From contig OZ241855.1 in the NCBI GenBank assembly GCA_965202785.1, positions 896,001 to 960,000 of the forward strand: DNA of 64,000 nt, written 5' to 3'. This stretch comes from Thermodesulfobacteriota bacterium. Lineage in GTDB: Bacteria > Desulfobacterota_D > UBA1144 > Nemesobacterales > Nemesobacteraceae. The first letter of the stretch is position 1. Each line of letters opens with the position of its first letter. Made by a program: the position numbers and the translations under genes. Positions 38,994 through 44,958 of the stretch are shown in pieces. The notes beneath the pieces were generated by a model, which ran no database searches, was not told where the DNA came from, and saw only the letters and a program-made list of their open reading frames with translations.

Positions 38994-40148
38994 GTGATTA
39001 GACGCAAATACTGGTTAAATCGATTGCAGGAAGCTTGGTCTCGCCGCCCTATTATCTGGCTTGCCGGCGTAAGGCGTGTGGGCAAGACGACTTTGGCAAA
39101 AATGCTGCCGGAAGCGACTTACCTGAATTGCGACCTGCCTTCCACACGGAGAGCTTTGCAGGACCCCGAGTTGTTTTTGCGGAGTCACCCGATGGACAAG
39201 CTTCTGATCCTAGATGAAGTTCACCGGCTGGCGGACCCGAGTCTGTGCTTGAAAATCGCAGCGGACGAATACCCTCGGATGCGTGTGCTGGCCACCGGTT
39301 CCTCCACGCTTGCAGCCACGCGCAAGTTCCGCGATACGCTTACGGGCCGAAAACGGACCATTCATCTGTTTCCCGTTCTCTGGGGAGAATCCATTGAGGC
39401 GTTTGAGGTAAAGGACCTTGACCGCCGCCTGCTTCATGGCGGTCTGCCGGAACTGCTGCTTTCGGAAAAAAGAGACCCCGCTTTCTACAGCGAGTGGATA
39501 GACAGCTTCTATGCCCGGGACATTCAGGAACTTTTCGGCGTACGAAGTCGGCAGGGATTTCTCTCGCTGCTGCGACTGCTGCTGCGCCAGAGCGGTGGGC
39601 AGGTGGATTATTCGCGCCTCGCTTCTGACAGCGGGCTGAGTCAGCCTACTGTAAAGACTCATATGGAATCCATGCGGACTGCCTGCGCGATACATCTCGT
39701 TCCGCCCTTTCACGGCGGCGGGAAGAGGGAGATAGTGGCCCGTCCAAAGTGCTATGCGTTTGATACCGGCTTTGTCTGCTACGAGAGGGGCTGGGACCAT
39801 ATAAGAGAGGAGGACCGCGGTCTGCTCTGGGAGCATCTTGTTCTCGATACGCTACGCAGCTCTCATGAGGATAACGCCGTTTTTTACTGGAGGGACAAAT
39901 CAGCCCGCGAGATAGACTTTATCATACGTCTTGCCGGAGGACAGGTGGATACTGTGGAATGCAAGATCAATCCCGAAAAGTTCACTACCAACGCAATGGA
40001 AGCCTTTCGCGCTTATTATCCCGAAGGGGAGAACTATATAGTCAGCCCGGGTGCCGGGGCATCATATCGCATCCGCCGGGGTAATCTTACGTATATGGTC
40101 TGCTCTCTTGATAGCAAATCAGGCTGGCCTTATCCTCTGACAATATGA
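38994..40148 (+). CDS. AAA+ ATPase with DUF4143 domain
   Basis: GVRRVGKT Walker A, LDEVH, ATGSS, GGLPE, KCYAFDTG, YWRDK..EIDFI...VECK. Confidence 0.9.
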   Translation: MIRRKYWLNRLQEAWSRRPIIWLAGVRRVGKTTLAKMLPEATYLNCDLPSTRRALQDPELFLRSHPMDKLLILDEVHRLADPSLCLKIAADEYPRMRVLATGSSTLAATRKFRDTLTGRKRTIHLFPVLWGESIEAFEVKDLDRRLLHGGLPELLLSEKRDPAFYSEWIDSFYARDIQELFGVRSRQGFLSLLRLLLRQSGGQVDYSRLASDSGLSQPTVKTHMESMRTACAIHLVPPFHGGGKREIVARPKCYAFDTGFVCYERGWDHIREEDRGLLWEHLVLDTLRSSHEDNAVFYWRDKSAREIDFIIRLAGGQVDTVECKINPEKFTTNAMEAFRAYYPEGENYIVSPGAGASYRIRRGNLTYMVCSLDSKSGWPYPLTI

Positions 40149-41276: not shown

Positions 41277-43076
41277 ATGGCGAAAGCAGAAGGCATAAGT
41301 TGGGATCTCTCGGATCTTTACGAAGGAATTTCCGACCCGCGCTTAGAGAAGGATTTCAAAAGGATATCGGCGCGTGCCGACAGATTTGAAAAAAAGTACA
41401 GAGGGAAGATAAAGTCTCCTTCGCTTACCGCGGGGAAGCTCGCGGGAGCCGTGAAAGAGATTGAGCGCTTATCGGAGGGAATCGGAAAGATGCTTTCTTT
41501 TGCTCATCTTATCTTCGCGGCCGACACGCGGGACCCCAAAAACGGCGCTTTTCGTTCATCAATGCAGCAGAAGGCGACGGAAGTTCAGAAAAAGCTTATT
41601 TTCTTTTACGTTGAATGGGTTTCGGTTCCGAAGAAAAGAGCGAAGAAACTTCTTAATAACCCGAAACTTTCAGAGTACAGGCATTTTCTCGAGCAGGAAA
41701 GACAGTACAGAGACCACACTCTTTCGGAAGCCGAGGAAAAAATACTTCAGGAGAAATCAAACACTGGGCAAAAGGCGTTTTCAAGGCTTTTTGACGAGGT
41801 CGTGAACAATATCCAGTTTCGTGTGAGACTCTCGGGCAAGACCGAAAGGCTCAACCAATCCCGGACCCTCTCGCTTCTTTACGACCCGGACAGAAAGAAA
41901 AGAAGGGCGGCCTGGTCCGGTCTCACAAGGGGGCTTAAAGAGAATTCCCATGTGCTTACCTACATATTCAACACGCTTGTAAACGACCACTCGATAAACG
42001 ACAGGCTTAGAAGCTACGAGGACCCCATGTCGGCGCGTCACCTAAGTAACGAGATATCCCACAGTGCCGTGGAAGCCCTGCTTGAATCGTGCGAGAGAAA
42101 CTTCGGATTCGTAAAGCGCTACTACGGACTCAAGGGAAAACTTCTCGGGTACAGAAGATTCTATGACTACGACCGCTACGCTCCCCTGGGTTCGGAGAGG
42201 GAGCAGGTCCCATGGGACAGGGCAGAAGAAATCGTGCTTTCTTCGTTCGGTGAATTCTCATCCAAGATGAAAAAGACCGCGTCTTTATTTTTCGAGAAAA
42301 ACTGGATAGATGCCGAGCTTCGGGATGGGAAAAGAGGGGGAGCTTTCAGCCACGGTACGGTTCCCGGCGTACATCCCTATGTTTTTATGAACTACACCGG
42401 AAAACCGAGAGACGTAATGATTCTGGCTCACGAGCTTGGCCACGGCGTGCACCAGTATCTTTCGAGACGACAGGGTTATTTCCAGGCCCACACGCCCCTT
42501 ACCACGGCCGAGACCGCAAGTGTTTTTGCGGAGATGCTAGTGTTTCACCGACTCAAGGAGGAAGAGACGCGAAGGGAAGGCAGGCTGGTTTTGGTAGCGG
42601 AGAAACTCGAGGATATAATGGCCACGGTCTTCAGACAGGCGGTGCTTACAAGGTTCGAGCAGAGCTTGCACCGCGAAAGAAGAGATCAGGGAGAGCTTAT
42701 GACCACAAGAATAAGTGAACTCTGGATCGAGGCTAACCGCGAGATGTTCGGAGATTCTGTCACCCTGACCGAAAACTACGCTTACTGGTGGCTTTACATT
42801 CCCCATTTTATACACTCTCCCTTTTACTGTTACGCATATTCCTTCGGCGAGCTGCTCACCCTAGCTCTTTACGGAATGTTCTTAGAGCGGGGAAGGTCTT
42901 TTGTGCCCGATTACATGGAGCTTCTTCGGTCCGGGGGAAGCGCCTCGCCCGCGGAACTTCTCTCTGGAGTGGGAGTGGATATAAACGACCCTGGTTTCTG
43001 GCAGACGGGGCTTGACGTGATAGGTGCGATGGTGGACGAGGTTGAAGAACTCGCGGAGCAGTCCGGACTCGGCTGA
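41277..43076 (+). CDS. pepF: M3 family oligoendopeptidase F
   Basis: WDLSDLY, GKRGGAF, LAHELGHGVH, AETASVFAE, PFYCYAYSFG. Confidence 0.93.
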   Translation: MAKAEGISWDLSDLYEGISDPRLEKDFKRISARADRFEKKYRGKIKSPSLTAGKLAGAVKEIERLSEGIGKMLSFAHLIFAADTRDPKNGAFRSSMQQKATEVQKKLIFFYVEWVSVPKKRAKKLLNNPKLSEYRHFLEQERQYRDHTLSEAEEKILQEKSNTGQKAFSRLFDEVVNNIQFRVRLSGKTERLNQSRTLSLLYDPDRKKRRAAWSGLTRGLKENSHVLTYIFNTLVNDHSINDRLRSYEDPMSARHLSNEISHSAVEALLESCERNFGFVKRYYGLKGKLLGYRRFYDYDRYAPLGSEREQVPWDRAEEIVLSSFGEFSSKMKKTASLFFEKNWIDAELRDGKRGGAFSHGTVPGVHPYVFMNYTGKPRDVMILAHELGHGVHQYLSRRQGYFQAHTPLTTAETASVFAEMLVFHRLKEEETRREGRLVLVAEKLEDIMATVFRQAVLTRFEQSLHRERRDQGELMTTRISELWIEANREMFGDSVTLTENYAYWWLYIPHFIHSPFYCYAYSFGELLTLALYGMFLERGRSFVPDYMELLRSGGSASPAELLSGVGVDINDPGFWQTGLDVIGAMVDEVEELAEQSGLG

Positions 43077-43082
43077 GGGTTT

Positions 43083-43925
43083 TTACTGGGAGAGGGAAGA
43101 AGTTTTCTCGTATTCGCTTACGATCTTGCTCACAACCGAGTAGTGAACCGAGACCGCATCGGCAACCTCTCTCAGCGTGTAGTCCCCCGTAAGATAGGTT
43201 TTTGCTATTGCTTCCTCTCTTGAGTGTCCGCTTCGCATGAAACCGTTTATCATGCCCGGTACGGGTTTTGTGAGCTGATACTTGGGAATATCCTTTGACT
43301 GCGAATCCCTCGTTTTTTCCTGCACAAGTTCTATGAATCCATCATCGCCGAGATATATCTGCTTTCGGGTTTCTGAAATCACGTCGCGCGAGTTGCTCTC
43401 TTCCAGAAACTCATCAAAAGCGCTTGTATCCGAAGAGAATCCTTCCGAGAACCACTCGAGGTCTATGTGCCCCGGCACTTCGTCTTTTCCGTAAAGATAC
43501 CTGCAACTGCTCCATTTGAACTGGTTGGGATGTTTTACGAACCCGGCTTGAAGAGGGAGAAGAAAAATATGGGCCATAAGCGGCAGAAGATATTTTTCCC
43601 TCTGGACAACTATGGATTTATATCTTCCCCGGAAAACATGGCCGTCTGTGTCGTGCAGCCTGTTTGAGCGCTGGGTGTAAACGCCGTTTAGCTGTCTTAT
43701 GGCTTTTGAGAGGTTAGGCTCCGGGGTCTCGATGACCAGATGGTACCCGTCGGACATGAGACAGTAACCAAAGCAACGGCATCCGAACCTTCCGCATACC
43801 CCCTCGAGGACTTCTATCCAGGCATTGCCGTCGGCTGAGTTCTGAAAGACGCTCTGTCCTCTGTTCCCGACTGAGGAGAGGTAATAGACGGCCCCTGCGT
43901 ATTCCGGTCTTAACGGCCTTGCCAT
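43083..43925 (-). CDS. RAYT/Y1 (IS200-like) transposase homologue with C-terminal HTH; catalytic residues substituted
   Basis: MARPLR, YCLM..YHL.IETP..NLSK..RQLNGVYTQ..N, GHVF.GRYKSI, WSS and HTH YTLREVA...VHYSVVSKIV; HUH reads GYH and YIxxNP reads HIFLLP. Confidence 0.88.
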   Translation of the reverse strand: MARPLRPEYAGAVYYLSSVGNRGQSVFQNSADGNAWIEVLEGVCGRFGCRCFGYCLMSDGYHLVIETPEPNLSKAIRQLNGVYTQRSNRLHDTDGHVFRGRYKSIVVQREKYLLPLMAHIFLLPLQAGFVKHPNQFKWSSCRYLYGKDEVPGHIDLEWFSEGFSSDTSAFDEFLEESNSRDVISETRKQIYLGDDGFIELVQEKTRDSQSKDIPKYQLTKPVPGMINGFMRSGHSREEAIAKTYLTGDYTLREVADAVSVHYSVVSKIVSEYEKTSSLSQ

Positions 43926-43932
43926 AAAGAAG

Positions 43933-43961
43933 ATTATAATGCGGAGGAAAAACTATGTCAA
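43933..43961 (-). promoter_or_regulatory. Perfect-consensus sigma70 promoter, probably leaderless
   Basis: Minus strand TTGACA-17 bp-TATAAT-7 nt-ATG, no SD. Confidence 0.85.
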
Positions 43962-43989
43962 GACCTGACCCTTAAGACGCATTGTCTTT

Positions 43990-44958
43990 TCAAGGGGCAA
44001 GCGCTTTCATTGCAAAGGCTACCTGCTCCCTCGAAGCGTTGTAGGGAAACATGAGAATGGGAAGATCGGAGTTCTCAGCGAACTCCCCGAGCTTTGCTCT
44101 TCCCTCCTCCGGGGAACCGCTTATGGAAATAAGATCGAGCAGTTCGTCACTTATGCTTTTTATAGCTTCTGCTTTGTTTTCCCGCCAGAGCTTTTTCGCC
44201 CTGTCCGCTTCCTCCCCGAATCCGTAGCTGCTTACGAGTTTGTGGTAATAATCTCCCATGGAGCATACATAAAGGGCCACGAATTCCCTTACGATTTCTC
44301 TTGACTCGCTTCGGTTCTCGGAAACCATCGCCGGAAGAAACGGGGCCACGGTTATTTCTCTTCCGCCGGAAGCGAGCACCTCTTTTCTTTCGTTTATAAG
44401 GCTCACGGGGCAGAGATACGGAATCCAGCCGTCAGCGACCCGGGAGGTAAGCTCGATGTTTTTCGGTCCCATGGATGCAATGTATATGGGGACCTCGCTT
44501 CTTCGGGGCTTAAAAAGAAGCCTGAAGCCCTTAAGCCTGAAAATCTCCCCTTCATAGTCAACCCTCTTTCCCGCGAGTATCGTCCTTATTATCTCGACGC
44601 ACTCAAGCGTCCGTCTCAGGGGACGCTCGAATTTCACGCCGTGCCAGTATTCGTTTAGGTAAACGCTGCTTATCCCGAGTCCGAGGATGAATCTCCCCCC
44701 GCAATACTCATCCACAGTGGCCGCCGTCTGGGCTATGAGTGCCGGAGACCTGCTGTAAACGGAGATGATGCCGGTGGCCAGATTTATCTTTTCTGTGACC
44801 GATGCCATGTGGGATATAAGGGAAAATGCGTCCCGGCCCCACATCTCGGGAACCCAGATCGAGTGGTATCCTAGGTCCTCGGCCAGTTTCGAAAAATAGA
44901 TAAGATCATCTTTTTTTACGTCCGCCCAGTAAGGCACGACTATTCCTGTCGAAGACAA
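43990..44958 (-). CDS. Luciferase-like monooxygenase (LLM) class flavin/F420-dependent oxidoreductase
   Basis: AEDLGYHSIWVPE, ATGII..YSRSPAL.AQ, GRFILGLG, PIYIASMGPKN, ADGW. Confidence 0.9.
   Translation of the reverse strand: MSSTGIVVPYWADVKKDDLIYFSKLAEDLGYHSIWVPEMWGRDAFSLISHMASVTEKINLATGIISVYSRSPALIAQTAATVDEYCGGRFILGLGISSVYLNEYWHGVKFERPLRRTLECVEIIRTILAGKRVDYEGEIFRLKGFRLLFKPRRSEVPIYIASMGPKNIELTSRVADGWIPYLCPVSLINERKEVLASGGREITVAPFLPAMVSENRSESREIVREFVALYVCSMGDYYHKLVSSYGFGEEADRAKKLWRENKAEAIKSISDELLDLISISGSPEEGRAKLGEFAENSDLPILMFPYNASREQVAFAMKALAP

Follow-up and report, generated by a model that had tools for sequence, protein, structure and literature searches.

A predicted nuclease-dead descendant of a TIRYT-type Y1 transposase, fixed in a genus of Dadabacteria, and the transposon-end relic that it may read

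What role can be left for a transposase that has lost most of its catalytic residues and is nonetheless kept as an uninterrupted gene? The question is raised by an open reading frame (ORF) of 280 codons with an ATG start, located in a 64,000-nucleotide (nt) stretch of contig OZ241855.1 (the window). This stretch belongs to a Dadabacteria genome, G000, which consists of a single contig of 1.64 Mb and is 96% complete. A preliminary description of the window had read the gene as a catalytically dead RAYT, a transposase of the class associated with repetitive extragenic palindromes (REPs), and as a candidate domesticated regulator. Our analysis leads to a related origin: we consider it probable that the protein is a domesticated, nuclease-dead descendant of the TIRYT family of Y1 transposases. 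It would most likely act as a sequence-specific DNA-binding regulator that reads a short box left over from a terminal inverted repeat (TIR), hereafter the ex-TIR box. The positions of the gene, of its domains and of the boxes are collected in Table 1.

The family to which the protein belongs could be defined with some precision. The window gene is the only match to the Pfam family Y1_Tnp (PF01797) in the entire 1.64-Mb genome, scoring 29.7 bits against a gathering cut-off of 23. Its score against the NCBIfam equivalog REP_Tyr_transpos (NF047646) is 47.4 bits, below the curated cut-off of 80. Neither REP hairpins nor other hairpin repeats flank the gene, as the preliminary description had stated for REP arrays; short inverted repeats in the gene surroundings occur at chance level only, and the repeated element near the gene is a 12-nt non-palindromic box, not a REP. 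The architecture is that of the TIRYTs, or TnpA-Y1 subclass 2.1.2, with a Y1 core, a serine motif of which WSS is kept, a C-terminal helix-turn-helix (HTH) and a family length of about 280-330 aa. Precomputed Pfam hits of the homologues name this HTH as HTH_23 or HTH_28. Quentin et al. 2018 (PMC6006769) describe a TnpA-Y1 subgroup 2.1.2 with C-terminal Bac_DnaA_C, HTH_23 or HTH_28 domains and without REPs, which probably equals the TIRYTs reported as parts of 'TIRtrons' by Di Nocera et al. 2013 (PMC3733652), whose account gives the HUH motif and the tyrosine as conserved in all of them. Full-length relatives abound: a word-indexed search recovered 3144 proteins at E <= 1e-3, and an exhaustive search recovered 21,377 representative clusters, 444 of them at E <= 1e-30. 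Members with intact HUH, Tyr and Asn share 40-45% identity with the window protein over the full length, with the same length and architecture. The window protein is a member of the TIRYT / TnpA-Y1 subclass 2.1 family and not a REP-associated RAYT; the earlier label was right about the Y1 fold and imprecise about the class.

The loss of catalytic residues was assessed from alignments with 25 (A1) and 143 (A2) family members. The family consensus reads YHxTSRGN, NHYHL, RYxxLNPVRA and WSSY, against YYLSSVGN, DGYHL, AHIFLLPLQA and WSSC in the window protein. Both alignments reproduce the motif readings of the preliminary description (YYLSSVGN, MSDGYHL, AHIFLLPLQA and WSSC), as well as the blocks that it had listed as kept, namely MARPLR, NLSKxxRQLNGVYTQ, GHVFxGRYK, QIYLGD and the C-terminal HTH; a C-terminal HYSxVS helix is kept too. 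The catalytic positions were fixed independently by aligning RayT of Escherichia coli K-12. Messing et al. 2012 (PMC3479197) place the active site of RayT at H59-M60-H61, Y115, N119, H123 and E161, positions that we confirmed in its sequence. In the window protein H59 corresponds to G60, H61 to the retained H62, Y115 to H119 and N119 to L123. Meanwhile, RayT H123 aligns with A127, where the TIRYT-type family consensus also has Ala. Three of the four family-conserved metal-binding or nucleophile residues are replaced, including the third metal ligand (Asn or Gln, four residues after the Tyr), which is L123, and one histidine, H62, is left. The statement that these positions were all changed was accurate for the first His, the Tyr and the Asn, and did not hold for H62.

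These replacements are a property of the lineage. Among 29 orthologues, the motifs MSDGYHL, AH[IV]FLLPL[RQ]A and WSSC are each found in 27; the first His of the HUH motif is replaced in all 29, and the Tyr position on helix alphaD is occupied by His in 28 and by Tyr in one. Because the same substitutions are shared by 26-27 of the 29 orthologues, the pattern is not due to chance. The other conserved tyrosines (Y14, Y61 and Y83) are equally conserved in catalytically intact members. As far as the residues can tell, the window protein is most likely nuclease-dead.

The fold, meanwhile, is predicted to be preserved. An AlphaFold2 model built from 144 sequences (predicted local distance difference test score, pLDDT, 93.4; predicted template modelling score, pTM, 0.81) keeps an intact Y1 core plus an HTH. 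The top Foldseek match of the core is TnpA-REP bound to its hairpin (4er8_A, probability 1.00), on which it superposes with a VIA-align Z of 16.2 and a root-mean-square deviation (rmsd) of 2.8 Å over 156 residues; the TnpA proteins of IS608 and ISDra2 were also matched. The C-terminal domain superposes over 61 residues on box-bound DnaA domain IV (3pvp_A, Z 8.3; 1j1v_A, Z 7.9; 8btg_A, Z 7.2; rmsd 1.7-1.9 Å), although common HTH folds form a background that a Z near 8 exceeds only moderately. By sequence, no solved structure in the PDB was matched at E <= 1.

The gene is also under strong purifying selection. We compared the locus across 28 species-representative genomes of Dadabacteria-type metagenome-assembled genomes (MAGs), whose orthologues are 65-95% identical. 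The same oxidoreductase gene lies directly upstream at all 28 loci, and pepF directly downstream at 25; a 1634-aa gene stands between in two genomes, and pepF is relocated in one. The frame, which the preliminary description had noted as free of stops and frameshifts over 280 codons, is intact in 29 of 29 copies. The median pairwise Nei-Gojobori ratio of nonsynonymous to synonymous substitution rates (dN/dS) among the orthologues is 0.094 at a dS of about 0.7, on par with the neighbours pepF (0.077), the oxidoreductase (0.087) and an acyl-CoA dehydrogenase (0.056). By segment, dN/dS is lowest in the Y1 core (0.051 for residues 1-145), 0.162 in the middle of the protein and 0.074 in the HTH (residues 233-280). 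RNA libraries (four runs, three studies) also yielded contigs of relatives, below 95% identity, that span the gene, although such contigs are no proof of transcription. The earlier inference of purifying selection for a new role is supported by dN/dS, synteny, the shared substitutions, the fold and the intact copies.

The distribution of the gene separates lineages in which it is fixed from lineages in which it behaves as a mobile element. We surveyed 120 genomes of the phylum-level group. The gene is present in all 36 genomes of the window's genus, with one match in 35 of them and two in the 36th, an assembly with 6% contamination. Families f4 (5/5 genomes) and f6 (5/6 genomes) also carry a single copy, at 43-51% identity. 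The larger genomes of families f2, f5 and f7 contain 2-9 matches at 30-40% identity, several with internal stops, which is the pattern of a mobile element. A single weak match was found among the 33 genomes of f8, and none among the 19 of f9. The single-copy genes have conserved surroundings of their own: in f6 the gene follows purD and a small ORF at 4/4 loci, and in f4 two of three loci have the same upstream gene. We conclude that this is a single-copy, vertically inherited host gene that is no longer mobile.

The catalytic residues have been lost differently in each of these lineages. In the window's genus the first His, the Tyr and the Asn are gone. The f4 proteins have lost both histidines and kept the Tyr, and those of f6 have kept HUH and Asn, with the Tyr changed to His, His and Asp in three species; one f6 genome (G026) has all four residues intact. 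In a FastTree phylogeny of 221 family members, which the data leave unrooted and in which support for deep nodes is weak, the window protein falls in a 47-row clade (support 99) of which 45 are altered, with varied residues at the catalytic positions. The fewest changes between the intact and altered states over the whole tree number 19, and well-supported branches force seven of these. Of 249 close relatives, in a sample biased toward the query, 118 lack one or more of His, His and Tyr. Lineage-varied loss of this kind is what would be expected if catalysis became dispensable after domestication, and the pattern suggests that fixation came first and that the dispensable catalytic residues then decayed independently.

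The region upstream of the gene provided insights into its origin. The gene has a sigma-70-type promoter, TTGACA-17-TATAAT, whose hexamers agree with the consensus at 12 of 12 positions; an alignment of 27 upstream regions shows that TATAAT and the spacing are conserved. Only 7 nt separate the end of the -10 hexamer from the ATG, and a Shine-Dalgarno sequence is lacking, which makes a leaderless mRNA probable. Across the orthologous upstream regions (27/27) a single long block is invariant, GGGTCAGGTCTTG; it overlaps the -35 hexamer, and its flanks vary. Its core, GGGTCAGGTCTT(G), lies 46 nt upstream of the ATG, and the orthologues of f4 and f6 have a core of the form GGGGTCA(A/G)GTCTT at 44-53 nt before the ATG. 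Multicopy relatives from the same order have true TIRs of 35 and 39 nt on both sides, which begin with AGGGGTCAAATC and GGGGTCAGGCATG, respectively, and contain GGGGTCAA / GGGGTCAGG at the same distance from the ATG as the box in the window. The published TIR motif of the TIRYTs is GGGGWSAS (PMC3733652); the box fits it except for the first G, which is present in some orthologues. From this agreement in sequence and position, the box is derived from the TIR of mobile relatives.

The right end of the element has left no such trace. No right TIR was found within 400 nt downstream at 26 orthologous loci, where the best matches were no better than those of shuffled sequence. The TIRYT trait of TIRs on both sides is reduced here to the left core, and the stop codon of pepF lies 6 nt from that of the Y1 gene. 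The claim that insertion-sequence ends are absent stands for the right end and fails for the left. Two of the larger f2 genomes (G008 and G002) have the box at the head of dispersed repeats with extended similarity, which share about 50 nt more (L155:1569 and 2507, L159:1537 and L154:1517 in G008; L161:1543 and L162:1590 in G002); these form a solo-TIR family or one resembling miniature inverted-repeat transposable elements (MITEs), and probably represent the still-mobile state of the element. In two RNA-library contigs from one study, similarity ends 5 nt upstream of the box, a mere hint that gene, promoter and box travel together. A more distant homologue, in a Solirubrobacteraceae MAG (L030:5890-6000; 35% identity over 175 residues), has two copies of the palindrome GGGGGTCTGACCCCC upstream, a REP-like arrangement with a related core.

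The box is not confined to the promoter of its own gene. Seven copies of the 12-mer GGGTCAGGTCTT are present in G000, whereas a set of 300 letter-shuffled 12-mers gave 0.15 copies on average and never more than 2. Of the seven copies, four are intergenic, in a genome that is about 10% non-coding. Host sites were examined blind to the box, by fetching the neighbouring gene across the genus and then seeking the box beside it. At htpG (30 loci) the 13-mer is exact in 25 loci, has one mismatch in three and three mismatches in one, and lies beyond 300 nt in the last (1.5 kb away). At tatC the 12-mer is exact in 31/31 loci, and at a gene for a DsbA-like protein in 28/30. The latter box is placed upstream of the gene and not inside it, as a crude ORF map had it, because the GTG start is conserved and the lengths of the open frames vary. 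The boxes at htpG, tatC and the DsbA-like gene point away from the downstream gene, whereas that of the Y1 gene points toward its gene. Flanks are variable at all four intergenic sites. Among the divergent genomes of the genus, the tatC box persists in at least one (G058) and the DsbA-like box in another (G062), and in two a box is located in the gap that separates a thioredoxin-like DUF255 gene from a NUDIX gene.

Copies of the box follow the presence of the gene. We counted the 12-mer with A or G at position 7 and used the reversed pattern as a control. The 36 genomes of the genus hold 276 copies (5-10 per genome) against 25 for the control. The gene-bearing families gave 29 copies against 4 in f4 (5 genomes) and 48 against 3 in f6 (5 genomes). 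In f8 (33 genomes, with one weak gene match) there were 6 copies against 11, and in f9 (19 genomes, no gene) none against 2.

Table 1. Coordinates of the Y1 gene, its parts, its neighbours and the ex-TIR boxes (window positions unless another reference is given)
Feature	Position	Strand	Basis or remark
Dead TIRYT-type Y1 transposase derivative (predicted), coding sequence, 280 aa	43083..43925	-	ORF; Pfam Y1_Tnp; stop codon 43083-43085
Y1/HUH-fold core, residues 1-183	43377..43925	-	Foldseek and VIA-align to 4er8_A
DnaA-domain-IV-like HTH, C-terminal, residues 220-280	43086..43268	-	VIA-align
HUH motif remnant G60-Y61-H62 (consensus H-Y-H)	43740..43748	-	Codons GGG TAC CAT
Catalytic-helix remnant, H119 for the nucleophile Tyr and L123 for the metal-ligand Asn	43557..43571	-	Codons CAT, CTC
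Sigma-70-type promoter of the Y1 gene	43933..43961	-	12/12 consensus matches
Ex-TIR box GGGTCAGGTCTTG, relic of the left TIR, proposed binding site	43959..43971	-	Overlaps the -35 hexamer
pepF, Peptidase_M3	41277..43076	+	Convergent to the Y1 gene; stop codons 6 nt apart
Luciferase-like oxidoreductase, Bac_luciferase (LLM oxidoreductase)	43990..44958	-	64 nt upstream of the Y1 gene, same strand
Seven boxes in G000 (contig C1 positions)	417611, 534561, 626433, 741785, 939960, 1218153, 1304208	+, -, +, +, -, -, -	Copies of the 12-mer
htpG box	156-186 nt before the ATG		Conserved promoter-like TTGTCA-16-TATTTT about 90 nt further downstream
tatC box	1-5 nt past the tatC stop codon		In G000, an AMP-binding acyl-CoA synthetase gene begins 44 nt further on
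DsbA-like box	Mostly 61 nt before the conserved coding part		GTG start about 55 nt downstream of the box

Several further observations concern the box sites. The strand of the seven G000 boxes roughly tracks the chromosome halves defined by the GC-skew extremes, a trend based on few sites and confounded with gene orientation. Aligned upstream regions of htpG contain a conserved block, ACTTGTCAAGAGAGCAATCAGTCTTATTTTT, 55-85 nt upstream of the gene, which holds the TTGTCA-16-TATTTT sequence (L068:1595-1630). A CCC(C/T)ATAT-like sequence stands beside some boxes, and we considered whether the box is a sigma-32-type promoter or one for an extracytoplasmic function (ECF) sigma factor. This candidate was rejected: the flanks vary, there is no second conserved block, and the box is inverted at its own promoter.

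In family f6, two ex-TIR boxes lie 91 bp apart just downstream of mnmE, amid about nine DnaA-box-like sites (TGTGGAAAA / TTATCCACA). Each of these boxes is preceded by TGTGGAAAAnnnA (L106:5780-6100 in G028, L109:2380-2700 in G029, L118:2280-2520 in G026 and L199 in G025). This region may be the replication origin, which would place the box within oriC. In G000 we found no comparable link to an origin: the extremes of cumulative GC skew, at about 730 kb and 1620 kb, coincide with none of the boxes, which also have no strong DnaA-box cluster nearby. Meanwhile, one f6 genome, G024, is the only member of its group without a Y1 match. It has no exact boxes, against 8-12 in its five congeners, and each of two orthologous boxes downstream of mnmE carries one point change (L198:3001 and 3092). 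We rejected G024 as a natural knock-out, given that only about 320 nt follow purD before its contig breaks off and that the cytochrome-c-assembly gene reaches the end of a second contig (L202, at the end of C1; L203, at the end of C7).

Based on these findings, we propose that the window protein, and not another factor, binds GGGTCAGGTCTT(G). We link protein and box because of their homology, position and co-occurrence. The ancestral transposase had to recognise its TIR; with fold, HTH and TIR core all preserved in the descendant, continued binding to this core is the most economical interpretation, and the HTH would most likely be the domain that reads the box. Host sites that carried the TIR core would have been recruited as targets. 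As the box sits atop the -35 of a consensus promoter, negative autoregulation is predicted, that is, the protein would repress its own gene by binding there. The DsbA-like box, which by sequence reading lies about 20 nt upstream of a plausible -35, would suit activation, and those of htpG and tatC might act as distant operators or as roadblocks; any activation or repression is in every case a prediction. The regulon would be small (htpG, the DsbA-like gene and, in some genomes, the thioredoxin-like gene), and we can only speculate that it is concerned with protein folding or redox stress. The constrained Y1 core may bind DNA alongside the HTH, hold a partner or sense something. Of the roles suggested in the preliminary description, sequence-specific DNA binding with transcriptional control gains from the conserved boxes, the binding itself being a prediction. 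Dominant-negative control of active RAYTs is rejected because the genome has no other Y1 gene, and so no active paralogue. Binding to REP hairpins is unsupported in a gene that is not flanked by REPs or hairpin repeats and whose family is TIR-associated.

A regulator that reads the ex-TIR box has to be weighed against four other explanations, of which the strongest is a DNA-binding protein with an architectural or replication-linked role, mediated by the DnaA-like HTH, that is not a transcription factor. It would use the boxes to organise DNA, for instance where genes adjoin or in and around the origin. Such a protein would account for a C-terminal domain whose best match is DnaA domain IV, for the paired boxes among DnaA-box-like sites in f6, and for two sites in the genus that directly follow stop codons (those of tatC and of a methyltransferase gene); moreover, targeting of the replication fork is among the proposals made by Quentin et al. 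for subclass 2.1 (PMC6006769). The position of the G000 boxes, away from the GC-skew extremes and from any strong DnaA-box cluster, does not agree with it, a box on the gene's own -35 and upstream of three genes fits transcriptional control better, and the f6 region is itself only a presumed oriC. We regard this alternative as unlikely. It is also conceivable that the box is owned by some other factor, or is a promoter element, and that the dead transposase does an unrelated job, such as protein or RNA binding through its Y1 core. The Y1 core is indeed more constrained than the HTH, and a host regulator could have co-opted the box after domestication. Yet homology, both of sequence and of position, ties the box to the TIR of mobile relatives, an end that the ancestral transposase needed to recognise; the box lies in the gene's own promoter in every gene-bearing lineage and falls to background frequency in gene-less families, and one contiguous 12-nt block does not resemble a two-part sigma-factor promoter. 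This explanation appears clearly improbable to us.

That the protein is still an enzyme, either a Y1 nuclease or ligase working with alternative residues (H62 and H119, or another Tyr) or one with a new catalytic activity, we hold to be highly improbable. H62 is retained, G60, H119 and L123 are conserved within the genus, and the core is under very strong constraint. Set against this, solved relatives use four residues to coordinate the metal or attack the phosphate, and the window protein has lost three of them. The wider single-copy clade has G/R/E/D/S/C/K/Y at the first His, H/E/Q/F/D at the Tyr and L/F/I/V/S/R at the Asn; so many unrelated residues at the catalytic positions indicate relaxed constraint and not a new active site. 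The spare tyrosines Y14, Y61 and Y83 are no more conserved here than in intact members, and the gene is not mobile. A neutrally decaying pseudogene that is still open by chance is the least credible possibility of all. Catalytic residues have been lost, and motif-less sequences were held to be probably non-functional in the survey of Quentin et al. (PMC6006769), but selection and conservation already refute this explanation: every copy is intact at a dS of about 0.7, dN/dS is like that of the housekeeping neighbours, the gene is in 36/36 genomes of the genus with its promoter and box conserved, and RNA-library contigs of relatives, although weak evidence, span it.

Several points also weigh against the regulator that we prefer. 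The co-occurrence of gene and box is drawn from related genomes that are not independent, in which each gene carries its own box, and it amounts to about three gene-bearing families against two or three gene-less ones. Coding constraint could have preserved three of the seven G000 boxes and many of the extra ones in f4 and f6, because these are located within coding regions. At about 90 nt upstream of the predicted -35, the htpG box has an atypical position for an operator. The targets vary by lineage: f4 and f6 have other sites, and the five most divergent genomes of the genus are without the htpG box. G024 offers no natural knock-out, because contig breaks truncate both sides of the syntenic locus, so that the gene may simply be unassembled there. 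The retained H62, with a His at the Tyr position, makes residual or altered chemistry conceivable, and binding through the HTH alone does not account for the strong constraint on the Y1 core. A broader version of the same idea, in which an ancient regulator-operator network spans at least the order and combines self-repression, control of folding and redox genes, origin binding in f6 through the DnaA-like HTH and independent catalytic decay in each lineage, seems to us rather doubtful. If it were true, a former single-strand-DNA transposase would be tied to replication control.

In eukaryotes there are well-documented cases of transposases that were domesticated as transcription factors, and in bacteria such domestication has recently been documented for RNA-guided TnpB (TldR). 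For HUH/Y1 proteins, the literature that we searched discussed only the still-active RAYT. The window protein resembles the TIRYTs of subclass 2.1.2 in architecture, length, HTH type, lack of REPs and a box at the position of the left TIR. It differs from the published TIRYTs in the replacement of three of four active-site residues and in the survival of the left TIR core alone; the gene is single-copy, syntenic and vertically inherited, and the box is also conserved at unlinked intergenic sites of the host. The best structural match, RayT/YafM of E. coli (PDB 4ER8, PMC3479197), likewise belongs to a domesticated single-copy Y1 branch; as described there, RayT is catalytically active, REP-flanked and without an HTH, whereas the window protein has an HTH, no REPs and replaced catalytic residues. 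The TnpA proteins of IS200/IS605 elements (IS608, ISDra2) have the HUH/Y1 fold and Pfam Y1_Tnp in common with it, but are active dimers of about 130-150 aa with subterminal hairpins and no HTH, whereas the window gene is immobile and its product predicted to be non-catalytic. As for DnaA domain IV, the C-terminal 61 residues superpose on it, but the window protein has no AAA+ domain and GGGTCAGGTCTT is unlike the DnaA box. A further parallel is TldR, reported as a group of nuclease-dead, TnpB-derived transcription factors (PMC10705468). There, too, a transposon nuclease has lost catalysis and is retained as a site-specific repressor or regulator of host genes; the TldR proteins are unrelated, with a RuvC fold, and are RNA-guided, whereas the window protein would itself recognise its site, a relic of the transposon end.

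In a search of the literature outside subscription journals, we found no paper on catalytically dead TIRYT or RAYT derivatives acting on relic TIR boxes. The earlier statement that no such family has been described is accordingly too broad for the parent family, which is described, and agrees with our search as regards its dead derivatives. The parent family with its TIRs, the domesticated active RAYTs and the TldR analogue are already known, and the new element is the dead, fixed form with co-opted TIR boxes. Our data add three further conserved host sites, the genome-wide enrichment and co-occurrence of the box, segment-wise selection, and independent decay in syntenic orthologues. Here a protein can be traced together with its presumed recognition site as both pass from mobility to a fixed network of the host: the elements of relatives in the same order occur in multiple TIR-flanked copies, some of them broken, whereas the window's genus has the gene as a dead single copy, with the TIR core as the would-be promoter or operator element in front of a few host genes. 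This is a testable case of a bacterial regulon wired from transposon ends. Quentin et al. removed 202 of 924 sequences without core motifs as probably non-functional (PMC6006769). The present case also suggests that the many 'motif-less' Y1 proteins discarded from surveys are functional. Altered proteins make up 118/249 of the close relatives in our sample, and our tree requires at least 19 state changes.

The genes around the Y1 gene were considered as possible functional partners, and the idea was rejected, as neighbours change between families and none is common to all: the LLM oxidoreductase is found in f1, purD and the small ORF in f6, and an unknown 432-aa protein at two of three f4 loci. 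In the two genomes of the genus where a gene separates the dead transposase gene from pepF, this is a 1634-aa Type ISP restriction-modification gene (L024:6833-11737; L025, same position). Its product has the domains Mrr_cat_2, ResIII, ISP_coupler, N6_Mtase and Type_ISP_C, and the gene overlaps the stop codon of the dead transposase gene. Elsewhere in the window, at 38994-40148, an ATPase-like ORF upstream of folK is full length at 7 of 28 orthologous loci and partial or absent at the others, which marks this position as a variable spot.

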